Shown here: in pieces, positions 10,799 through 61,789 of the stretch
How positions within the stretch are numbered: the stretch's first letter is position 1
Layout of the letters: every line of letters begins with the position of its first letter
From: a virus
Taxonomy: Duplodnaviria > Caudoviricetes
Reading direction: 5' to 3' (one strand)
IMG/VR virus record: IMGVR_UViG_3300037421_000032
Coordinates: 451-64,450 of that record
Length of the DNA: 64,000 bases
Translations under genes and position numbers: made by a program
Notes under the pieces: model-generated
Databases searched by the model: none
What the model saw: the letters and a program-made list of their open reading frames with translations, nothing else
Told to the model about the DNA's origin: nothing

Positions 10799-13765
10799 CT
10801 ACTCGATCCCCGGCGCGCTACCCATGGCCCCGCGCTCGCGCACACCCCATGGCTGCAATGGCTCGTTGAACTTCACTTCGATCGGATGCCCGGCGTCGTC
10901 ATGTACGAATCGGCCGCCGCCGTCCTTGAGCCATATCCCGTCGCCCCTCGGCGACGTGACCCACGTCGGTTTCGACTTGAGCAGGTCGAGCCATTCCTGC
11001 GCTCGCGCGCCGGTCGGCATCATGACGTTCTCGGCCGTGAGTCCTTCGATCCTACCCCGCGCGTTCGCCGCAACCGTGTCGTAAGCCGTAGCCGGCACGC
11101 GCGCGCCGCCGTCCGGCATGAACCGGAGCTTATCGGTAAACGCCTTCACGGCATCGATCGTCGCATTGTCGCTTTTGTTCTCGAACTTGTAGGCTTGCGC
11201 CAGGCCCTCGATGCCGTCGAGCACGCCGGCGATTTGCGTGGTCGAGAGCCCCGAATCGCGCAGCGAGCGCATGTAGGACTGGATATCCGCATTGCCACGG
11301 ATATCCTTGCGAATTGCGCCCGTGATGTCGGCGCCGAGAATATCGGTCGCGGTCTTCTCTTTCGTCGTTTCATTGATCCAGCGTGAGAGCGTGGCCGCGG
11401 CCTGCGGATTATTCAAGGTCGATTCATCGGCGAGCGCCGCGACTGCCTGATAGGTCGAGGGCATCTTGCCCAGGGTCACAAGATCGCGGAACACGGCGGG
11501 CCATGCCGCGCCGTAGCGTTGCTGCATCTGCCCGAACAATACGGCCGGATCGCCCTTGGCGACCGCTTGCGTCAGTCCCATCGCCTGCCCGCGCGTGAGA
11601 ACGTGGCGCATGTCTTCCGGCACGCCGAGCTGCCCTTGCACGGCGAGTTGCGCCGTGGCGTAGGCATTGAATTGTTCCGGGCTCTTGTCGGCGGTCGCCC
11701 GCGCCGTGAGAACGGCCGGATTCGTCTTGGCATATTCGGCCGGGTCGGCATGCTCGCCGATCAGGAGCGCGTCGCGCTGCGATAGCGCACGCTCCAATTG
11801 CCGCCCCGCGCCCGCGCGCAATCGAAAATACATCGCCTGCCCTTCGGTATCCGCTTCGGGCTCGGCAATGCCTGGCCCCGTCGTCGCGCGTTTCGCATGT
11901 GCGCGCAACCGTTCCGACAAGAGTCCCTGCCCGCTTTCGATGTCCTTTCTTGCCGATTCGACTTCCTGCGGGCTTGCCCATTGCATGCCGCGGATCGTCG
12001 TCCCGACGTTCTGGGCGATATTGAATTCCTCGATCATTCGCTGGGCGACGTTGGGCGGAAAGACCGCGCGGATTCGATCCTCGGGGATCGTGAGCCCTTC
12101 GACGCCGTTCTCGGCGGCGGCAATCCAGTTACCTACGTTGTGCTGGAGATCGTCGCGCTCCGTCCGATTCATCGAATCGTAGACGCCGAACTCGTGATTG
12201 ATGCCGGCGAAGACTTTATCCTGCACCCGCGGCGGCACGTTGAACCCGGTCATCATCCGCGCCGCGCGGCCGAACACTTCCGACTTGTCGGCCCGCTCCG
12301 GCGCGTAGCCTTCCGGCGGCGCAAAATCGGTAGGCAATGCGCTGCCAAATCGGCCAACTTTCGCCTGCCAGTAGTTCATGAATTGGCCGGAGGTCACGTT
12401 GTCGACCGAGCCGAACCGGCGCTTGTCGTCGTCGGCGATGTTTCCCCAGATCGCGGCCTTGGCCCAGCGTTCGCCCTTTTGCTGGCCTTCGGCCGTGGAA
12501 AGCATGTTGATCCAGGCCGGCGCATTGGGATTAGCCATGTGGGCGGTAAAACCGCCCCAGCCCTGTTGATGCACCAGATAGAGTTGCCACGGGTCGGGCT
12601 TTTGTCCGAAGACTTCCTCGAAATGGTCGGACTCGGCCTTGAGCTTGCGCGCGGCGGCCATCGCATTGTCGCCGGCACTGTAGATATTGCCGCCGCCGTA
12701 GCGCGTAAACTCATCGTTCGACAGTTGGAACAGCCCGCGATAGCTCCCCGTCGTTGCCGTCGCCCGGCCGCCGGATTCGATCCGCGCGATCGTGCGCAGC
12801 AATCCCGCATCGAGTCCCGTCGCCTTGGCGGCATTGTCGACGGCCGCGTTCGCATCCTGCGGCAACGATCGCAGCGGCACGCTCGGGATCGGCTGCATGC
12901 CGGACGGCGCCGAGCCGGGCGGCGCGACCTTGCCCATGAGCATGTCGACCATACCGCGGGCGCGCGCGTCCTCCAGTTTTCCCCGGAGGTTCGAGCCTAC
13001 GGCGAGAATATCCTGGGCCGTCATCTGGGCTTGATAGTGCTCCAGCATGGCGGCGGCGCGCTGCGGTTCGCCCAATTGTCCACCCGTGCCGACACCCACG
13101 GTTTCAATGATGGTTTTCAGCGCGCTTGAACGCGCCGTGGTCATTGCCCGATTGATGCTCGGCTCATCGAGCCCGCGCAATTCGCCCCAATCGCGCATTT
13201 TCTGATCGCCGGACCGAAGCAGCAATTCCATGTGGGCCGGATCGTCGCGCGCCAAGGCCGCTTGGTTATAGAACTCGGACGCCGCGTCCTTGCTTGAGGC
13301 GTCGACCCATTTCTTTTGCTGTCCGTCCGCGTAGCTTTGCCCCGAGCGCAAGTAGTAGTCCGCCATGCGCCGCATGGTGTTGGAAAGCAACTGCTTGGCC
13401 TGCAAATTCGGCGCGGCGTCGAGCGTATCGCGGTAGCTGTGTTCGATTTCCTCGTTGAACTGAGGCAGATGGTCGACCGCGCCCTTGCCTTCCAGCGTAT
13501 TAAGCTTGCTCCAAGAATCGGTAAACCGCTTCATGCCGGGCACGGCGGCGTCGTTCGCATAAAGCTCGTTGGCAATGTGGGCGCGCTGGATCGCTACGTC
13601 CATCCCGGCAACGCCGGCCGCCTCGATGCCTGTGCCTAGCTTTTCTTGCGCTTGCGCCGTAAGCCCCCCGAACATCTGCGGCGTGGATTTGATATCCAGA
13701 TAATCGCCGCCCGGCGCTCCGGTCGGCTTTTCCTCTGGCACATTGATATCGAGAATGTGCGCCAT
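10799..13765 (-). CDS. internal virion protein with lytic transglycosylase (SLT-like) domain
   Basis: LLRTIARIESGG...YRGLFQL...LYLVHQQG motif; position in the ejectosome cluster. Confidence 0.8.
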   Translation of the reverse strand: MAHILDINVPEEKPTGAPGGDYLDIKSTPQMFGGLTAQAQEKLGTGIEAAGVAGMDVAIQRAHIANELYANDAAVPGMKRFTDSWSKLNTLEGKGAVDHLPQFNEEIEHSYRDTLDAAPNLQAKQLLSNTMRRMADYYLRSGQSYADGQQKKWVDASSKDAASEFYNQAALARDDPAHMELLLRSGDQKMRDWGELRGLDEPSINRAMTTARSSALKTIIETVGVGTGGQLGEPQRAAAMLEHYQAQMTAQDILAVGSNLRGKLEDARARGMVDMLMGKVAPPGSAPSGMQPIPSVPLRSLPQDANAAVDNAAKATGLDAGLLRTIARIESGGRATATTGSYRGLFQLSNDEFTRYGGGNIYSAGDNAMAAARKLKAESDHFEEVFGQKPDPWQLYLVHQQGWGGFTAHMANPNAPAWINMLSTAEGQQKGERWAKAAIWGNIADDDKRRFGSVDNVTSGQFMNYWQAKVGRFGSALPTDFAPPEGYAPERADKSEVFGRAARMMTGFNVPPRVQDKVFAGINHEFGVYDSMNRTERDDLQHNVGNWIAAAENGVEGLTIPEDRIRAVFPPNVAQRMIEEFNIAQNVGTTIRGMQWASPQEVESARKDIESGQGLLSERLRAHAKRATTGPGIAEPEADTEGQAMYFRLRAGAGRQLERALSQRDALLIGEHADPAEYAKTNPAVLTARATADKSPEQFNAYATAQLAVQGQLGVPEDMRHVLTRGQAMGLTQAVAKGDPAVLFGQMQQRYGAAWPAVFRDLVTLGKMPSTYQAVAALADESTLNNPQAAATLSRWINETTKEKTATDILGADITGAIRKDIRGNADIQSYMRSLRDSGLSTTQIAGVLDGIEGLAQAYKFENKSDNATIDAVKAFTDKLRFMPDGGARVPATAYDTVAANARGRIEGLTAENVMMPTGARAQEWLDLLKSKPTWVTSPRGDGIWLKDGGGRFVHDDAGHPIEVKFNEPLQPWGVRERGAMGSAPGIE

Positions 13766-56490: not shown

Positions 56491-57174
56491 TCATGGAACG
56501 TGTTTTGTCAGTAACGCAATTAATGCGACGACCCCAACGACCATGCCTACAGCGCCAAAAATCCAACCTGTAAAGTCAGACACGCCCTTTCCGTGGCCCT
56601 CGCCACGATCCAATCGACCTTTGAGATCATCGATCTTGTCATTGGTCGCCTTGCTGTCGGAAATGAACAGCGTTTGAAGCTGCCGCAGGCTTTCCGCAGT
56701 CGCCTGCTCGCTTTTATTGATCGCCAGAGAGTTGGACTTGTTCTGCTCGCTCACAGCCTCCTTTTGCGCTGCAAACGCGGCGGTCACGGCAGTTTGCGCC
56801 GCGACGGTAAGCTGGTCGGTACGCTTATCCCGCTCGATGAACTGATTCGAGACGCCGGAAAACTTCTCATCCGTCACGATGGCGAGCTTATTGATCTCGC
56901 TTTTTAGCAATTCGCGCAGGGCTAGTGCGGATGCATCGATTTCCTCTTTCCGGTTATTTAGGGTCTCCTTCAATGTCATAGCATTAGACTCGACCCCATC
57001 AATTCGTATCATCACGACTTCGCGCAGGGCACTAATCTCTCGACGAAGCTGGTCGGTCGTCAGGGCGGTTGGGTCGGGGACTGGAACTAGCCGGCCGCCC
57101 GAACGGTAGCCACGGCGGCCATTATTATCGGCATCTTCTTCATCGAGCTGGGTGATTTGCCGTCGCGTCGCCAT
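56491..57174 (-). CDS. coiled-coil protein with a C-terminal TM anchor
   Basis: Heptad-rich; ends WIFGAVGMVVGVVALIALL; AGGAG RBS. Confidence 0.7.
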   Translation of the reverse strand: MATRRQITQLDEEDADNNGRRGYRSGGRLVPVPDPTALTTDQLRREISALREVVMIRIDGVESNAMTLKETLNNRKEEIDASALALRELLKSEINKLAIVTDEKFSGVSNQFIERDKRTDQLTVAAQTAVTAAFAAQKEAVSEQNKSNSLAINKSEQATAESLRQLQTLFISDSKATNDKIDDLKGRLDRGEGHGKGVSDFTGWIFGAVGMVVGVVALIALLTKHVP

Positions 57175-57335
57175 CTTGGATTTCTCCTATCCCGGCCACA
57201 GCATCATCGAGACTTTCGTCAGCAAAAGAGCGATGACAATGGCGCCCATAACCTCGACGAATATCTGCTCAAATGGCGAGAGTTTGCGCCACCAGTCGCG
57301 CCACCAAGCGAAGGCGCTAAGGGTTTGACGGCGGG

Positions 57336-57920
57336 TCATTTGGTAGGTTCCCCCTCCGCATCGTCCGCCTTGCCGTGGCCGATGCGTTCCTGCGCGCGCT
57401 TGCGGCCCGTGGGGTTCTGTGCGGCGCCGATCGCAGCGTCGAGGTCAGCGACCTGCTTCACAAACCCGGCGACTTCATCGTCGATCTGCGCCTCACGCCG
57501 CTTCATAATGTCGAGCGCGGTGCGGTCCTTGATCGTCTGCAAGGTCTGATCAACACCCGCCCGCTCAGCCTTGGCGCGATCTAATGAGTTCTGAATGACG
57601 ACCCGCTGCGTCTGCAATGACGTAACCTTGAGTTGGTCGCTATTGTCGTCGAGTTGGCCGGAAACTTTGTTGACGTTGCGCGAGACTTGGTTAACGAGTC
57701 GTAAGACCTCGGTCTTCGCCTTGACGATCTGGCCGTCCGTGTATTCGCGGGTTGCGAGCACCGGCCAGTCGAGCTTGACCCAAAGAAAAATGGCGCCCCC
57801 GATCGTCATGAAAATGCCGACGCCCGCGCTGATCCCCTTGCCGATCTGCCACAGCGTAAGCGGACGGCGCAGCGGATCGGCTTGCCGTTGTCCTCGCTTG
57901 CGTGCCGCTTTCTTCGCCAT
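57336..57920 (-). CDS. N-terminal TM plus coiled-coil protein (possible spanin-like)
   Basis: ISAGVGIFMTIGGAIFLW followed by a long helix. Confidence 0.6.
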   Translation of the reverse strand: MAKKAARKRGQRQADPLRRPLTLWQIGKGISAGVGIFMTIGGAIFLWVKLDWPVLATREYTDGQIVKAKTEVLRLVNQVSRNVNKVSGQLDDNSDQLKVTSLQTQRVVIQNSLDRAKAERAGVDQTLQTIKDRTALDIMKRREAQIDDEVAGFVKQVADLDAAIGAAQNPTGRKRAQERIGHGKADDAEGEPTK

Positions 57921-58064: not shown

Positions 58065-58916
58065 TTACTTCGATGCGAGTGTGATCCCGCCCGGCGAGAA
58101 CATATACCGCAACTCGACGGCATAGAGGTTCCCCATGGTGGTCGTCCCGGTGAACTTCGCGCCGGCCGCCGGGTCGAACACGTTGGAGAATTCCAGGCCG
58201 TTCTTGGCTAATACGATCTTGCCGCTCACGTCGAACACGCCGCCGGTCGGAGTGCCGGCCGAGTTGAGCTGTTGCCACAGGGCGCCGATTCGCACGCGCG
58301 GTGCCCATACGACATCGGCACCACCGACCCCGCCGAAGTTGCCGCTCACTCCAAACGCCTCGAAACCTGCGCCAATGTAGGTTCGCGGAGCTGCCGCGAC
58401 GTGCGCGCCGGGTGGCGGGACCGGATTGAACGTCGGGAAGCTGATACTCCCGAGGCCGATGTTGCCGGCCGCGTTGGCAAGCAGGGTCATCGGATCGACC
58501 GACCCGCCTACCCTTGCTTCGCAACCGGCGGACCAGCGGCTTGCCACGCTCGCAACCCCGATCGTGCTGCCGCCCGGCATGACCGCCGTCACGTCGCCGC
58601 TGGAGATGTTGCGGTAGCTCGCGTCGCACTCGCCCGCGTACCAGTGTGCGGCCGAACCCTTCATGTAGCCGACGACACCGCCGATGTAGCCGCCGTCAGA
58701 CTTGACGTTGCCGGACACAAGGCTGTTGAGCCCGAGCGCGCTGGTCGAGGTATTGGCGACCGCGGCCCCGGATTCCAGGCCCACGTAGAGGCCGCCAGTG
58801 TCCCAGAGAGTGGCCGGCGTGATCGGGGCCTTGGTGATGAGCGCCGGCAGATCCGCAGCCCCAGCGGCGCCCGCAGCCAGCGCAAGCAGTATTCCAGTGA
58901 TGATAGTCCGTTTCAT
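58065..58916 (-). CDS. outer-membrane beta-barrel protein (Omp25/31-like)
   Basis: Signal peptide then ADLPALITKAP...GLYVG...GGYIGG.VGY; near-terminal LRYMF strand. Confidence 0.75.
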   Translation of the reverse strand: MKRTIITGILLALAAGAAGAADLPALITKAPITPATLWDTGGLYVGLESGAAVANTSTSALGLNSLVSGNVKSDGGYIGGVVGYMKGSAAHWYAGECDASYRNISSGDVTAVMPGGSTIGVASVASRWSAGCEARVGGSVDPMTLLANAAGNIGLGSISFPTFNPVPPPGAHVAAAPRTYIGAGFEAFGVSGNFGGVGGADVVWAPRVRIGALWQQLNSAGTPTGGVFDVSGKIVLAKNGLEFSNVFDPAAGAKFTGTTTMGNLYAVELRYMFSPGGITLASK

Positions 58917-59410: not shown

Positions 59411-59587
59411 TCACTGAATGGGGCTTCCGAACAAGCGCCAGCCGAGCAGGCCCACGAGGATGAACAGCACACCCCAAGAGCCAAAGGCACCCATGCGGCC
59501 GCGATCGGCGCCCCAAGGGCCAAGGCCCCATATACCGAACACACCCACTAAAACGTATATGAGCCAGAACCATATATTCGCGCCCAT
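59411..59587 (-). CDS. small 2-TM membrane protein
   Basis: MGANIWFWLIYVLVGVFGIWG...LFILVGLLGWRLFG; GGAG RBS. Confidence 0.7.
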   Translation of the reverse strand: MGANIWFWLIYVLVGVFGIWGLGPWGADRGRMGAFGSWGVLFILVGLLGWRLFGSPIQ

Positions 59588-59681
59588 GTGAGTCTCCGTT
59601 GTTCGAGTTAGCGAGGAACCGCCAGTAGCAACAACGTCGCCACGACCAGCGGCAACATCAGTTGTTCGAACTGCCAAGGCA

Positions 59682-59831
59682 TTACAGCCTTCCCGTCAAG
59701 AGCAAAACCACGAGCACGATAAGTAAGATGCCAACGATCCCGATTCCCCCGCCGCCGATGTGGCCGCCATAGTAGCCGGCGCCACCACCGAATAGAAGGA
59801 TCAGGATAATAATGAGTACAACCAGGTTCAT
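59682..59831 (-). CDS. DUF3309-like small membrane protein (49 aa)
   Basis: Hand translation MNLVVLIIILILLFGGGAGYYGGHIGGGGIGIVGILLIVLVVLLLTGRL; GAGG RBS. Confidence 0.75.
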   Translation of the reverse strand: MNLVVLIIILILLFGGGAGYYGGHIGGGGIGIVGILLIVLVVLLLTGRL

Positions 59832-59881: not shown

Positions 59882-60229
59882 TCAGCCGCCCGCGCTCGCG
59901 CGGTCCATCCAAGCCTTTTCGTCCGCTGAGAGTGTGCCAGGCGCGACAAGCGCCTTGGCGACGATGTGCTTGCCTACGACCCGCGGCGGATCGACGTTCT
60001 CTCCCTCCGCGACGGGAGGCGACGCGCCGGCCGCCTTTACCAAGTCCGCCGTCACGGCCTCAAGATGCGGAATGATAGTCGGATCGGTCTTTTCGATTGC
60101 CTCGACTGCCTTGCCGCTGGTGGCGGCAAGGTCGGCAACCTTGTCACCGTGCGCGAGCAGGAACTTTGCGATCGGCACGTACTTGGCCGCGCCTGGAATA
60201 AGCCCGATCAGGTTGATGAGGGGGATCAT
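59882..60229 (-). CDS. lysis-module hypothetical protein
   Basis: ATGA-coupled to the holin-like gene. Confidence 0.6.
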   Translation of the reverse strand: MIPLINLIGLIPGAAKYVPIAKFLLAHGDKVADLAATSGKAVEAIEKTDPTIIPHLEAVTADLVKAAGASPPVAEGENVDPPRVVGKHIVAKALVAPGTLSADEKAWMDRASAGG

Positions 60230-60552
60230 GCGGCCGGTCTCGTGGCTTGAACGACCGGCGCGGGCGCGACCATCTGCACGGCGGGCACGGTCGGATCGGC
60301 CGCCACCGCCTTGACCGCGGGCGAGGCGGTCGCGTCGATCTTGACCGTTGCACCCTGGACCGCCGCCGCGGCGATGACCGCGCTGGAGTCCGTGTGAACC
60401 TTGGCGGACCAGGCCGCGACGCCTGCCGTCGCGAGCGAAGCGAGAATGATGTTCCAAGTGTCCGTGTCGAAGAACGCTCCCTTGGCCGCGAGATAGGCGG
60501 CAAGCGCCGGGATAACGGCGCGCAGGATGCCGGCGAGCTGACTTGAGTTCAT
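60226..60552 (-). CDS. putative holin
   Basis: QLAGILRAVIPALAAYLAAKG...IILASLATAGVAAWS; 2 TM segments; downstream of the endolysin. Confidence 0.65.
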   Translation of the reverse strand: MNSSQLAGILRAVIPALAAYLAAKGAFFDTDTWNIILASLATAGVAAWSAKVHTDSSAVIAAAAVQGATVKIDATASPAVKAVAADPTVPAVQMVAPAPVVQATRPAA

Positions 60553-61241
60553 GTGCTTTTCCTTTCGAGGACAGCATAAGCGGCGGCGATGTCGGCGTGA
60601 TCGGCGCCGAGCGAATGGCCCGTGAAGATGACCTCATCGACGTCCGCGATCAAGGGTTTGATCGCCGCCCAGGCGGCGTCCATCCCGATCACGAAGCCTT
60701 CCCACATGCGCCCGAGCCGGTCGTGCATGATGAGGCGCGTGAGCAAAGCCGGAACGTCGAAGCCGGTCAGATCGCGCAGCCAATCGAATAGGTCGTCGGA
60801 TCCACGGAAGACGACGAAGGAGCGCCGGCCCTGGCGGCGGATAGCCCACACAACGCCGACCGTCGAACTGCTCGCATCCCACGCTTCGGGAGGCGTGCCC
60901 GGCTTGGCGTAGATCGCGTTGCAGAGTCGCGCGGCCTCGACATGCGCGGGATCGATTCCGGCCGCCTGCGTGCCGGCAACGTAAAGAGGGGCATGATGCC
61001 AGCGGAAGATTCCGAGCCCGTCGTTATCCGGCGGATCCGCGCGGACGAACGCAAGCGGCGTCGGATGCACGAAGTCAAGCCCGAGCGCCGGGACCGCGAG
61101 TGGAAAGTCCGTCACCCGATCGTGCCCGAGCGGACCTGACCGATTACAGTAGGCGACGCTCTCATCAAGCCCTTTGAGGATATCGGCAAATTGCTGCATT
61201 CCTGGCAGGGCTTCCCCGAAGACGATGCGACGCAGGATCAT
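60549..61241 (-). CDS. class-3 lipase-like alpha/beta hydrolase, circularly permuted
   Basis: VVFRGS..DW..D and FTGHSLG lie near the C-terminus; FG..PG..FA, DRVTDFP, FVHP and WHH..Y lie near the N-terminus. Confidence 0.8.
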   Translation of the reverse strand: MILRRIVFGEALPGMQQFADILKGLDESVAYCNRSGPLGHDRVTDFPLAVPALGLDFVHPTPLAFVRADPPDNDGLGIFRWHHAPLYVAGTQAAGIDPAHVEAARLCNAIYAKPGTPPEAWDASSSTVGVVWAIRRQGRRSFVVFRGSDDLFDWLRDLTGFDVPALLTRLIMHDRLGRMWEGFVIGMDAAWAAIKPLIADVDEVIFTGHSLGADHADIAAAYAVLERKST

Positions 61242-61789
61242 GCGGTCGGCACCATCTTGAGCGCCGCGGCCTCGATTTCTTCCGAGCGGCGAATCCAATC
61301 TTTGCCGAAGCGGCCGAATGTGGAGATCATCCGATAGACCGCCTCGCGTCGGGCTGTAAACGCCTTGATTTCGTCGGCGTCGACAATTTTCGCCGCCGCC
61401 GCTTCGGTCAGCGGCCCCCATTGCCCATCGGCTGGAATGCCGAGCGTATACTGCATGATCTTGATCGCCTCGAATGACCCCTGGTTGACGGCGTCGTCGA
61501 AGAACACAAGGTCGAAGCCCGGCGGGAGCTTAGGACAATGAGGCTCCCAATAGCTCGTGCGATAGATCGTGAAGCCTTCATCCTGCGTCATCTGACGCAC
61601 ATCACGCACAGGCAGTCCCTGTGCTTTACGCCAATGGTCATATTCTCTCTGAATGATGCCGTTGAAGGTCTTACCCCCTGGGTCGCCGGGATCGTTGCTG
61701 AAATTTCTCGGGTTGCTCCAGTCTTGCGGAACGGGAGCTTCTTGTCGAAGCGTGAAGGGAAGGCAGATTAGGAAGCGGTCCTCGGCCAT
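61238..61789 (-). CDS. endolysin, glycosyl hydrolase family 108
   Basis: E...FSNDPGDPGGKTFNGI...IYRTSYW...FDDAVNQG...DG.WGP.T...FGKDW.RR. Confidence 0.9.
   Translation of the reverse strand: MAEDRFLICLPFTLRQEAPVPQDWSNPRNFSNDPGDPGGKTFNGIIQREYDHWRKAQGLPVRDVRQMTQDEGFTIYRTSYWEPHCPKLPPGFDLVFFDDAVNQGSFEAIKIMQYTLGIPADGQWGPLTEAAAAKIVDADEIKAFTARREAVYRMISTFGRFGKDWIRRSEEIEAAALKMVPTA

Follow-up and report, generated by a model that had tools for sequence, protein, structure and literature searches.

Two groups of described systems bear on the gene considered here, one by its fold and the other by its genomic setting. The polyhydroxybutyrate (PHB) depolymerase of Penicillium funiculosum is presented, in the accessible portions of the reports, as a natural circular permutation of the α/β-hydrolase fold (PMC3531081, PMC13552848), and permutations of the peripheral strands of this fold are noted in the available part of a recent survey (PMC11878206). 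Among lytic enzymes, LysB of the mycobacteriophages Ms6 and D29 is described in the available text as a lipolytic enzyme of the lysis cassette that is needed for efficient lysis (PMC5707550), and the accessible sections on a Pseudomonas syringae phage place a GDSL-like lipase in its lysis cassette (PMC12173070). About 15% of phages are reported to be without spanins, and phiKT uses a cationic peptide instead, according to the available portion of that source (10.1101/515445). Here we describe a lipase gene, P0001, in a stretch of 64,000 nucleotides (positions 451 to 64,450 of the IMG/VR virus record IMGVR_UViG_3300037421_000032; Duplodnaviria, Caudoviricetes), which is referred to as the window. 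The window takes up almost the whole of this record, which is a complete virus genome of 64,450 bases flanked by direct terminal repeats. The large genes of the window match podophage-type structural proteins, namely internal virion, tail, head-tail adaptor, major head and terminase proteins. We found that P0001 is almost certainly a natural circular permutant of a class-3 lipase and that the permutation is real. The gene and its two halves are as follows; strands and helices are named by the standard α/β-hydrolase scheme, as assigned by us.

60549..61241, minus strand: lipase gene P0001, 230 residues, stop codon included (open frame and translation)
60951..61241, minus strand: residues 1-97, the ordinary C-terminal half with β6, a helix, β7, Asp41, β8, His82 and αF (BLASTP, split profile and model)
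60552..60950, minus strand: residues 98-230, the ordinary N-terminal half with a helix, β1-β4 with FRGS, the DWLRD lid helix, β5, GHSLG and αC (BLASTP and VIA-align)

The translation of 60549-61241 contains IVFGEALPGMQQFA at residues 6-19, DRVTDFP at 41-47, FVHP at 57-60, WHHAPLY at 81-87 and GHSLG at 208-212, and Ser210 of the last motif sits 20 residues before the C-terminus. A first reading made from the letters alone (the sequence-only reading) had named these motifs, which lie where it placed them, and had proposed a circular permutation with the triad order Asp-His-Ser; this proposal is upheld by swapped BLASTP matches, by swapped and split profiles, by conservation after rotation and by contrasting structure models. 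Pfam Lipase_3 (PF01764) matched residues 142-226 only, with profile positions 1-87 of 140, a score of 28.3 bits (cut-off of 22) and an expectation value (E) of 1.8e-6. Because it is the start of the profile that is matched there, the C-terminal part of P0001 corresponds to the first part of a lipase domain. The sole PHROG match was phrog_21992 'esterase/lipase' at residues 137-222, the first 97 residues had no Pfam or PHROG match, and a Pfam scan at E<=10 gave nothing besides Lipase_3. P0001 is not collinear with the class-3 family model, in which the order is Ser, Asp, His; the order in P0001 is Asp41, His82, Ser210. As collinear models cover half of the domain, permuted lipases look like fragments in annotation.

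Distant relatives translated from viral, genome and metagenome contigs contained the two blocks of P0001 in the opposite order. The ordinary-order chain runs through LCxxIY, VVFRGS, DWxRD, GHSLGAARA and DGxxP and then through RVVFGEPKPG, SYRNG, HDLVTDVP, YVHPTP and HHxxLY. We used P0066, a natural relative of 225 residues, as the ordinary-order reference, and Lipase_3 covered positions 1-137 of its 140-position profile in P0066, compared with the 87 positions covered in P0001. BLASTP of P0001 against P0066 revealed two matches: query residues 102-224 aligned to residues 6-124 with 38% identity (E 4e-21), and query residues 5-92 aligned to residues 133-219 with 47% identity (E 1e-19). These two significant local alignments lie in swapped order and cover both proteins, well past what chance could produce, and the second of them bears out the expectation of the earlier reading that the N-terminal 90 or so residues align to the C-terminal half of a lipase.

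A homologue search of a 5.8-billion-cluster protein collection returned 63 proteins at E<=1e-3, of which 62, including the query, were full-length (219-256 residues); P0065, a fragment of 140 residues, was left out of the set. The other 61 were 48-88% identical to the query, and the 62 shared common starts and ends, with Asp41, His82, His83, GHSLGA and further columns invariant. This architecture is kept in 62 full-length homologues from many separate contigs, which excludes misassembly. The profile made from these 62 proteins was searched against 1.84 billion representatives and matched 2507 proteins at E<=1e-3, 504 at E<=1e-10 and 86 at E<=1e-30. Most of the best 150 of the 2507 showed two swapped stretches, with profile positions 102-223 on residues of about 5-126 and profile positions 4-94 on residues of about 129-217. 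We also built split profiles separately from residues 1-97 and 98-230, and these assigned all 62 close homologues to the permuted order. Among the 148 new representatives in the best 150, 141 were ordinary and seven were permuted, so that the permuted proteins in the best 150 numbered nine with P0058 and P0060 from the 62 close homologues. The N-part split profile matched the C-terminal half of the 141 ordinary-order representatives with E values of 1e-12 to 1e-22. The 106 related loci comprised six permuted and 28 ordinary copies, one copy broken over three frames and 71 loci that matched the first-half profile only (more distant lipases), and the frames of 80 metagenome loci were permuted in six cases, ordinary in 44, first-half only in 29 and second-half only in two. 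When the permuted-clade profile was searched against solved structures, one significant stretch per chain was found; a second, non-significant stretch in 6unv_A (score of -3.4; profile 9-32 on chain 202-225) has a location that fits the permutation and carries no weight alone.

The structure of P0001 was modelled with AlphaFold2 using the 62-sequence alignment. The model revealed a confident single domain, with a mean predicted local distance difference test score (pLDDT) of 86.1 and a predicted template modelling score (pTM) of 0.88; low-confidence parts were residues 41-60 (block means of 59 and 72) and residues 151-170, which form the lid region (54 and 50). The first block is composed of strand 2-8, helix 16-22, strand 27-33, Asp41, strand 63-66, His82 and helix 84-94. 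It is followed by helix 98-109, strands 123-127, 130-137 and 140-145, helix 151-158 and further short elements, and the chain ends with helix 187-198, strand 203-209, Ser210 and helix 211-229. The GxSxG nucleophile elbow lies between a strand and a helix in this model, and Asp41 and His82 come after strands. Both a signal peptide and a membrane segment are absent from P0001, and its N-terminal residues lie in a buried strand. By comparison, the P0066 model (pLDDT of 92.7, pTM of 0.91) contained the same elements rotated, with its first helix corresponding to P0001 98-109 and its last helix to P0001 84-94. As far as the two models can be compared, their element lists are rotations of each other, as predicted for the same fold in a rotated order.

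Upon comparison with solved structures, the P0066 model matched fungal lipases from end to end, in Foldseek with an E value of 2.5e-8 and a template modelling (TM) score of 0.65 over 220 columns. VIA-align superposed it on 5xk2_A with a Z-score of 21.1 and a root mean square deviation (rmsd) of 3.0 over 200 aligned residues (3-217 on 17-274), and on 3tgl with a Z-score of 20.0. The P0001 model aligned to 4tgl, the Rhizomucor miehei lipase, over residues 92-230 on 9-165 (Z-score of 8.5, rmsd of 3.3, 131 aligned residues); on the side of the lipase, the match stops with the helix that follows the nucleophile. In Foldseek the P0001 model had no match at E<=0.001, the best being 4.6e-3 to 4tgl over about 120 columns. 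The alignment of P0001 to solved lipases is partial because a collinear aligner must treat a permutant in this way. The Foldseek null is expected of a permutant and provides no evidence of a new fold for P0001.

A lipase fragment truncated and joined to an unrelated N-terminal domain, or an artefact of assembly or gene calling, would also present half a lipase domain to Pfam and find no Foldseek match at that threshold. The split profiles and the BLASTP matches to P0066 refute this reading, as they show the N-terminal block to be homologous to the ordinary C-terminal half. The 62 homologues from separate contigs, the completeness of the genome that hosts the gene and the single-domain model speak against it as well, and its probability is negligible.

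Conservation was evaluated after the permuted proteins had been rotated in silico and all 210 family members had been aligned to the ordinary-order profile. The residues concerned are listed below in query numbering.

61119..61121, minus strand: Asp41 codon, predicted catalytic acid; kept in 210 of 210
60996..60998, minus strand: His82 codon, predicted catalytic base; kept in 209 of 210 (one gap), just before model helix 84-94
60993..60995, minus strand: His83 codon; kept in 188 of 210
Tyr87: kept in 209 of 210
Gly147: kept in 208 of 210
Position 148: Ser in 190 and Thr in 19 of 210
Trp154: kept in 194 of 210
His209: kept in 210 of 210
60612..60614, minus strand: Ser210 codon, nucleophile in GHSLG; kept in 210 of 210, between model strand 203-209 and helix 211-229

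His82 is better conserved than His83 and is therefore the better candidate, and the catalytic histidine is most likely His82. This assignment is based on conservation and on its place after a strand and before a helix, not on alignment to a solved chain. The residues put forward from the letters, Asp41, His82 or His83 and Ser210, hold, with the histidine refined to His82. A second profile, built from 50 ordinary-order relatives, was searched against solved structures, and its positions 19-194 matched the class-3 lipases 5ch8_A and 1tia_A at E 1.4e-17. The serine of the family GHSLG motif aligned with Ser145 and the aspartate of HDxVTDVP with Asp199, which we take to be the catalytic residues of these lipases, and RVVFGEPKPG aligned with the YAYASPRVGN strand. 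In fungal lipases, the counterparts of FRGS (145-148) and the DWLRD helix are the oxyanion motif and the lid that bears a Trp.

The serine, aspartate, histidine and oxyanion glycine are kept in 208-210 of 210 sequences, in both chain orders and at 30-60% overall identity, which points to selection on catalysis. As judged from these sequences, the predicted enzyme is likely to be active. A pseudo-enzyme or binding module that has kept the fold and lost hydrolysis would be compatible with the low model confidence in the lid and in residues 41-60, but such constant catalytic positions in both chain orders oppose it, and we regard it as improbable.

We next consider where the chain was cut. Proteins of the query clade have their new termini in the loop between helix αC and strand β6, so that the chain starts at β6, and the former C- and N-termini are fused to each other with no extra linker. 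On the evidence of sequence, profiles and predicted structures, the rotated chain thereby yields the fold and the active site of the ordinary relatives. The path from the nucleophile serine to FGE through the termini had a median length of 28 residues in permuted and 26 in ordinary proteins, and the path from HHxxLY to FRGS had a median of 57 in permuted and 60 in ordinary proteins, where it runs through the ordinary termini; regular-expression landmarks were found in 63 of 67 permuted and 55 of 141 ordinary proteins, and only medians were used because the ranges hold mis-hits. We infer that no segment was gained or lost in the rearrangement. The query-type cut was also present in five more representatives (P0072, P0088, P0093, P0120 and P0164). 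A second type, cut before the nucleophile strand β5, was found in two other lineages, represented by P0154 and P0199, which start with xxGHSLG and end before it, with β1-β4 at the C-terminus. BLASTP of P0154 against P0066 aligned residues 4-112 to 104-214 (E 5e-22) and residues 124-215 to 7-99 (E 9e-15). P0199 has a second cluster member (P0214) on another contig, and P0154 comes from one contig. The two cut sites imply at least two different permutation outcomes.

The query clade was well supported in both trees (20 of 20 rows with a support of 100 in FastTree, and 6 of 6 with a support of 99 in IQ-TREE), and the other permuted proteins fell among ordinary ones. The FastTree tree, built on 168 rows that lacked 42 of the 62 close homologues, gave four changes for the query-type cut, of which the starred branches force at least two. 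IQ-TREE, with 55 rows kept and nine long-branch or odd-composition rows excluded by name, also gave four changes, and its starred branches force only one. The best trees required two changes for the second-type cut. The deep branches are weak, and in the approximately unbiased test a single clade of all first-type proteins was not rejected (log-likelihood difference of 19.0, p 0.292). The rearrangement would most likely have originated when a tandem duplicate of the gene became fused in frame and the outer pieces were then lost. This route is called into question by the lack of a tandem-duplicated intermediate in the 106 and 80 loci, in the best 150 of the 2507 representatives, which all had at most two stretches, and among proteins of 449-2000 residues, the last being weak evidence.

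Three frames flank P0001 on the same strand.

61238..61789, minus strand: GH108 endolysin P0002, 183 residues, upstream of the lipase (Glyco_hydro_108 E 4.9e-18; PHROG phrog_315 endolysin E 8e-30)
60226..60552, minus strand: putative holin P0003, 108 residues, downstream of the lipase (Phage_holin_10, the Pam3 gp28 family, E 9.8e-6)
59882..60229, minus strand: fourth coupled frame, 115 residues with a hydrophobic N-terminus (sequence reading)

On the plus strand, 'tcat' occurs at 61238-61241, where the endolysin stop and the lipase start overlap as ATGA, at 60549-60552, where the lipase stop overlaps the start of the holin-like gene in the same way, and at 60226-60229, where the holin-like gene meets the 115-residue frame. 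These three sites show that four consecutive genes, namely the endolysin, the lipase, the holin-like gene and the 115-residue frame, are coupled by ATGA. The sequence-only reading had placed the lipase in such overlaps between a GH108 endolysin and a putative holin. The coupling on both sides can be read in the sequence and the endolysin is identified by both Pfam and PHROG, but the holin call reaches only 26 bits with Phage_holin_10, where the cut-off is 27; by eye, P0003 has two hydrophobic stretches. The 115-residue frame had no family match in Pfam or PHROG, and a promoter scan found none for the lysis cassette.

To place the cassette among its relatives, same-strand neighbours within 1.3 kb were scanned at 27 related loci with a full-length gene. 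Genes for peptidoglycan hydrolases, for endolysins that bind peptidoglycan or for holin-like proteins accompanied the lipase at 13 of them, as follows.

GH19 neighbour: loci L074 and L077
GH25 neighbour: loci L014 and L085
phrog_181 endolysin neighbour: loci L006, L009 and L010
PG_binding_1 endolysin neighbour: loci L002, L012 and L080
Peptidase_M15_4 neighbour: loci L005 and L009
SLT neighbour: locus L015
Phage_holin_10 neighbour: loci L001 and L009

At L009 the order is an endolysin, an ordinary-order lipase and, just downstream, a holin_10-like frame (33.2 bits), and L108 has a further sub-threshold holin_10 match. In P0070, P0129 and P0143 (526-534 residues), PG_binding_1 is followed by an ordinary-order lipase, and these fusions place relatives at the cell wall. 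We also observed that a domain of about 200 residues without a Pfam match precedes the lipase at the N-terminus of P0070, P0129, P0143, P0190 and L031:2311-3651, an arrangement that resembles an endolysin-lipase fusion.

Gene neighbourhood suggests that P0001 is an envelope lipid esterase acting at lysis. According to this proposal, the lipase would be translated within the four-gene coupled block and accumulate in the cytoplasm, and it would gain access to the envelope, together with the endolysin, only through the lesion that the holin makes in the inner membrane. By hydrolysing ester bonds to the acyl chains of a lipid found there (outer-membrane phospholipid, lipoprotein or lipid A), it would contribute to breakage of the outer membrane. 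In the sequence-only reading, the lipase was suggested to act possibly in place of spanins or alongside them. P0001 itself shows neither of the spanin features that were looked for, an inner-membrane anchor and an outer-membrane lipoprotein signal, as its N-terminus is the buried strand (block pLDDT of 96). A lipobox scan of all window frames picked out three, all of them away from the lysis block and one within a large gene on the opposite strand, and so no outer-membrane spanin candidate close to the cassette, although a simple pattern of this kind cannot prove absence.

Several observations weigh against a role in lysis. No recognisable lysis gene was nearby in 14 of the 27 loci, and of nine distinct permuted loci the endolysin is directly adjacent only in the window. 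The holin-like neighbour scores just below its cut-off, and the case for lysis is drawn from gene neighbourhood only. A frame of 194 residues at 57336-57920 (minus strand) has, by reading, an N-terminal membrane anchor and a coiled-coil-like remainder in an inner-membrane-spanin-like layout; it could be an inner-membrane spanin, so the phage may not lack spanins. Finally, no relative of P0001 or P0066 was found in 50,697 deposited phage genomes.

Part of this evidence would suit a different use of the same active, permuted enzyme. Instead of acting on the outer membrane at lysis, it could be released with the progeny and strip ester groups off polymers outside the cell or on its surface (exopolysaccharide, O-antigen acetyl groups or debris-bound receptors) or degrade storage lipids, thereby aiding spread or escape from trapping. 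The 14 loci mentioned above would fit this use; upstream of the lipase lies a polysaccharide lyase gene in L050 and a terminase gene in L018. Surface and exopolysaccharide substrates are discussed for lysis-cassette lipases in the accessible part of the Pseudomonas syringae phage lipase paper, where a Bacillus phage enzyme that is released at lysis and degrades extracellular polymer is also described (PMC12173070). In the window, however, the gene is translationally coupled between the endolysin and the holin, and the PG_binding_1 fusions put relatives at the cell wall. The Trp-bearing lid helix and the FRGS motif, which are features of interfacial lipases, are also conserved. On balance we consider the polymer-directed use rather unlikely. 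A role for P0001 in lysis at the envelope is slightly favoured over its absence, and a permuted, active lipase working at lysis is, as a whole, the best explanation and a reasonably probable one, part of which is conjectural.

Additional frames were noted around the cassette. Directly downstream of the four coupled genes, at 59411-59831 (minus strand), two very hydrophobic small frames (49 and about 58-88 residues) may be further membrane proteins of the cassette. A Gly/Ala-rich protein of 283 residues at 58065-58916 (minus strand), with the signal-peptide-like N-terminus MKRTIITGILLALAAGAAGA and no family match, is outer-membrane-protein-like. No hairpin of the region resembles a terminator more strongly than the one at 58027-57994 (minus strand; 15 pairs, then a run of T), which comes after this frame and downstream of the cassette. 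The 194-residue anchor frame overlaps as ATGA with a frame of 50 residues that has a C-terminal hydrophobic stretch, and a coiled-coil-like protein of 227 residues with a C-terminal anchor comes after it; none of these three frames (56491-57920, minus strand) had a family match in Pfam or PHROG. In the internal-virion-protein region, a 988-residue protein at 10799-13765 (minus strand) matched endolysin families weakly over its first 300 residues (E of about 1e-8) and is probably carried in the virion to degrade the wall at entry.

Relatives also occur in prophages of named hosts, which include Bradyrhizobium, Methylovirgula and other Alphaproteobacteria, Acidobacteriota (Terracidiphilus and Bryobacterales) and Candidatus Cybelea. 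Two ordinary-order copies are decayed: L086:2977-3579 is split over three frames, and L087:2764-3243, from Bradyrhizobium erythrophlei, has lost all but the last part of the first half and a portion of the second. Both are probably remnants in degraded prophages. P0187 (403 residues) combines an HNH endonuclease domain (phrog_99, E 1.7e-50) and an ordinary-order lipase in a single frame; a homing endonuclease may have been inserted beside the gene and read through.

It is rare for a natural circular permutation of an enzyme to leave both chain orders in existence within a single, clearly homologous family, and this lipase family offers a natural setting in which to ask how a protein accommodates new termini, how folding order matters and how such rearrangements arise. 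The occurrence of the lipase beside endolysins and holins, together with the wall-binding fusions, points to enzymatic breaking of envelope lipid layers in phages of poorly studied soil bacteria. If this is true, the lipase would provide a further way of disrupting the outer membrane, besides spanins and disruptin. On a more speculative and less likely reading, the family would be a permutation hotspot, with at least two breakpoint types and, on the best trees, up to six events and with all forms similar in sequence to ordinary relatives, and the lipase may be an outer-membrane-breaking third lysis component in place of the spanin complex in phages of soil Alphaproteobacteria and Acidobacteriota.

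Qian and Lutz reportedly engineered circular permutants of Candida antarctica lipase B and showed that a lipase tolerates new termini; those are laboratory constructs of a different lipase family and not natural proteins. Like LysB, which we take to be cutinase-like, and the GDSL lipase, P0001 is a predicted lipolytic serine hydrolase in a lysis cassette. Those two enzymes belong to other families, serve in hosts with other envelopes and have no reported permutation, and P0001 matched only Lipase_3 (Pfam at E<=10) and phrog_21992 and no LysB family. The fungal class-3 lipases (Rhizomucor miehei 3tgl and 4tgl, Thermomyces lanuginosus 1tib, Penicillium 1tia and 5ch8, and Aspergillus oryzae 5xk2) share the fold and the catalytic machinery of the phage family, whereas the phage proteins are about 50 residues shorter, have no signal peptide and are about 20% identical to them. 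The closest counterparts are the ordinary-order small class-3 lipases of phages and prophages (P0066, and L009, L010 and L080 in Bradyrhizobium sp. prophage regions), which are of the same family, have a similar size of about 220 residues and have the same kind of neighbours. They share with P0001 the Ser, Asp and His residues, FRGS and the lid Trp, and the blocks of P0066 are 38% and 47% identical to those of P0001, in which the chain is rotated, cut in the αC-β6 loop and joined at the old termini.

A full-text literature search, with subscription journals and the 2026 CIRPIN supplements outside its reach, turned up neither a permuted class-3 lipase nor a chain that runs Asp-His-Ser. For natural circular permutation of the α/β-hydrolase fold, it gave the PHB depolymerase case only, with a different cut. 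As far as the available text describes that enzyme, β1-β4 have moved to the C-terminus, so that the chain is cut ahead of the nucleophile strand and still runs Ser-Asp-His, an arrangement that matches P0154 and P0199. P0001 does not have this type of cut, as its chain ends after the helix that follows Ser210 and its order is Asp-His-Ser. Permutation of the α/β-hydrolase fold as such was already known, and what is new here, as far as that search reaches, is a permuted class-3 lipase with the order Asp-His-Ser. Unlike the PHB depolymerase case, the phage lipase family holds both chain orders with significant sequence similarity between them.

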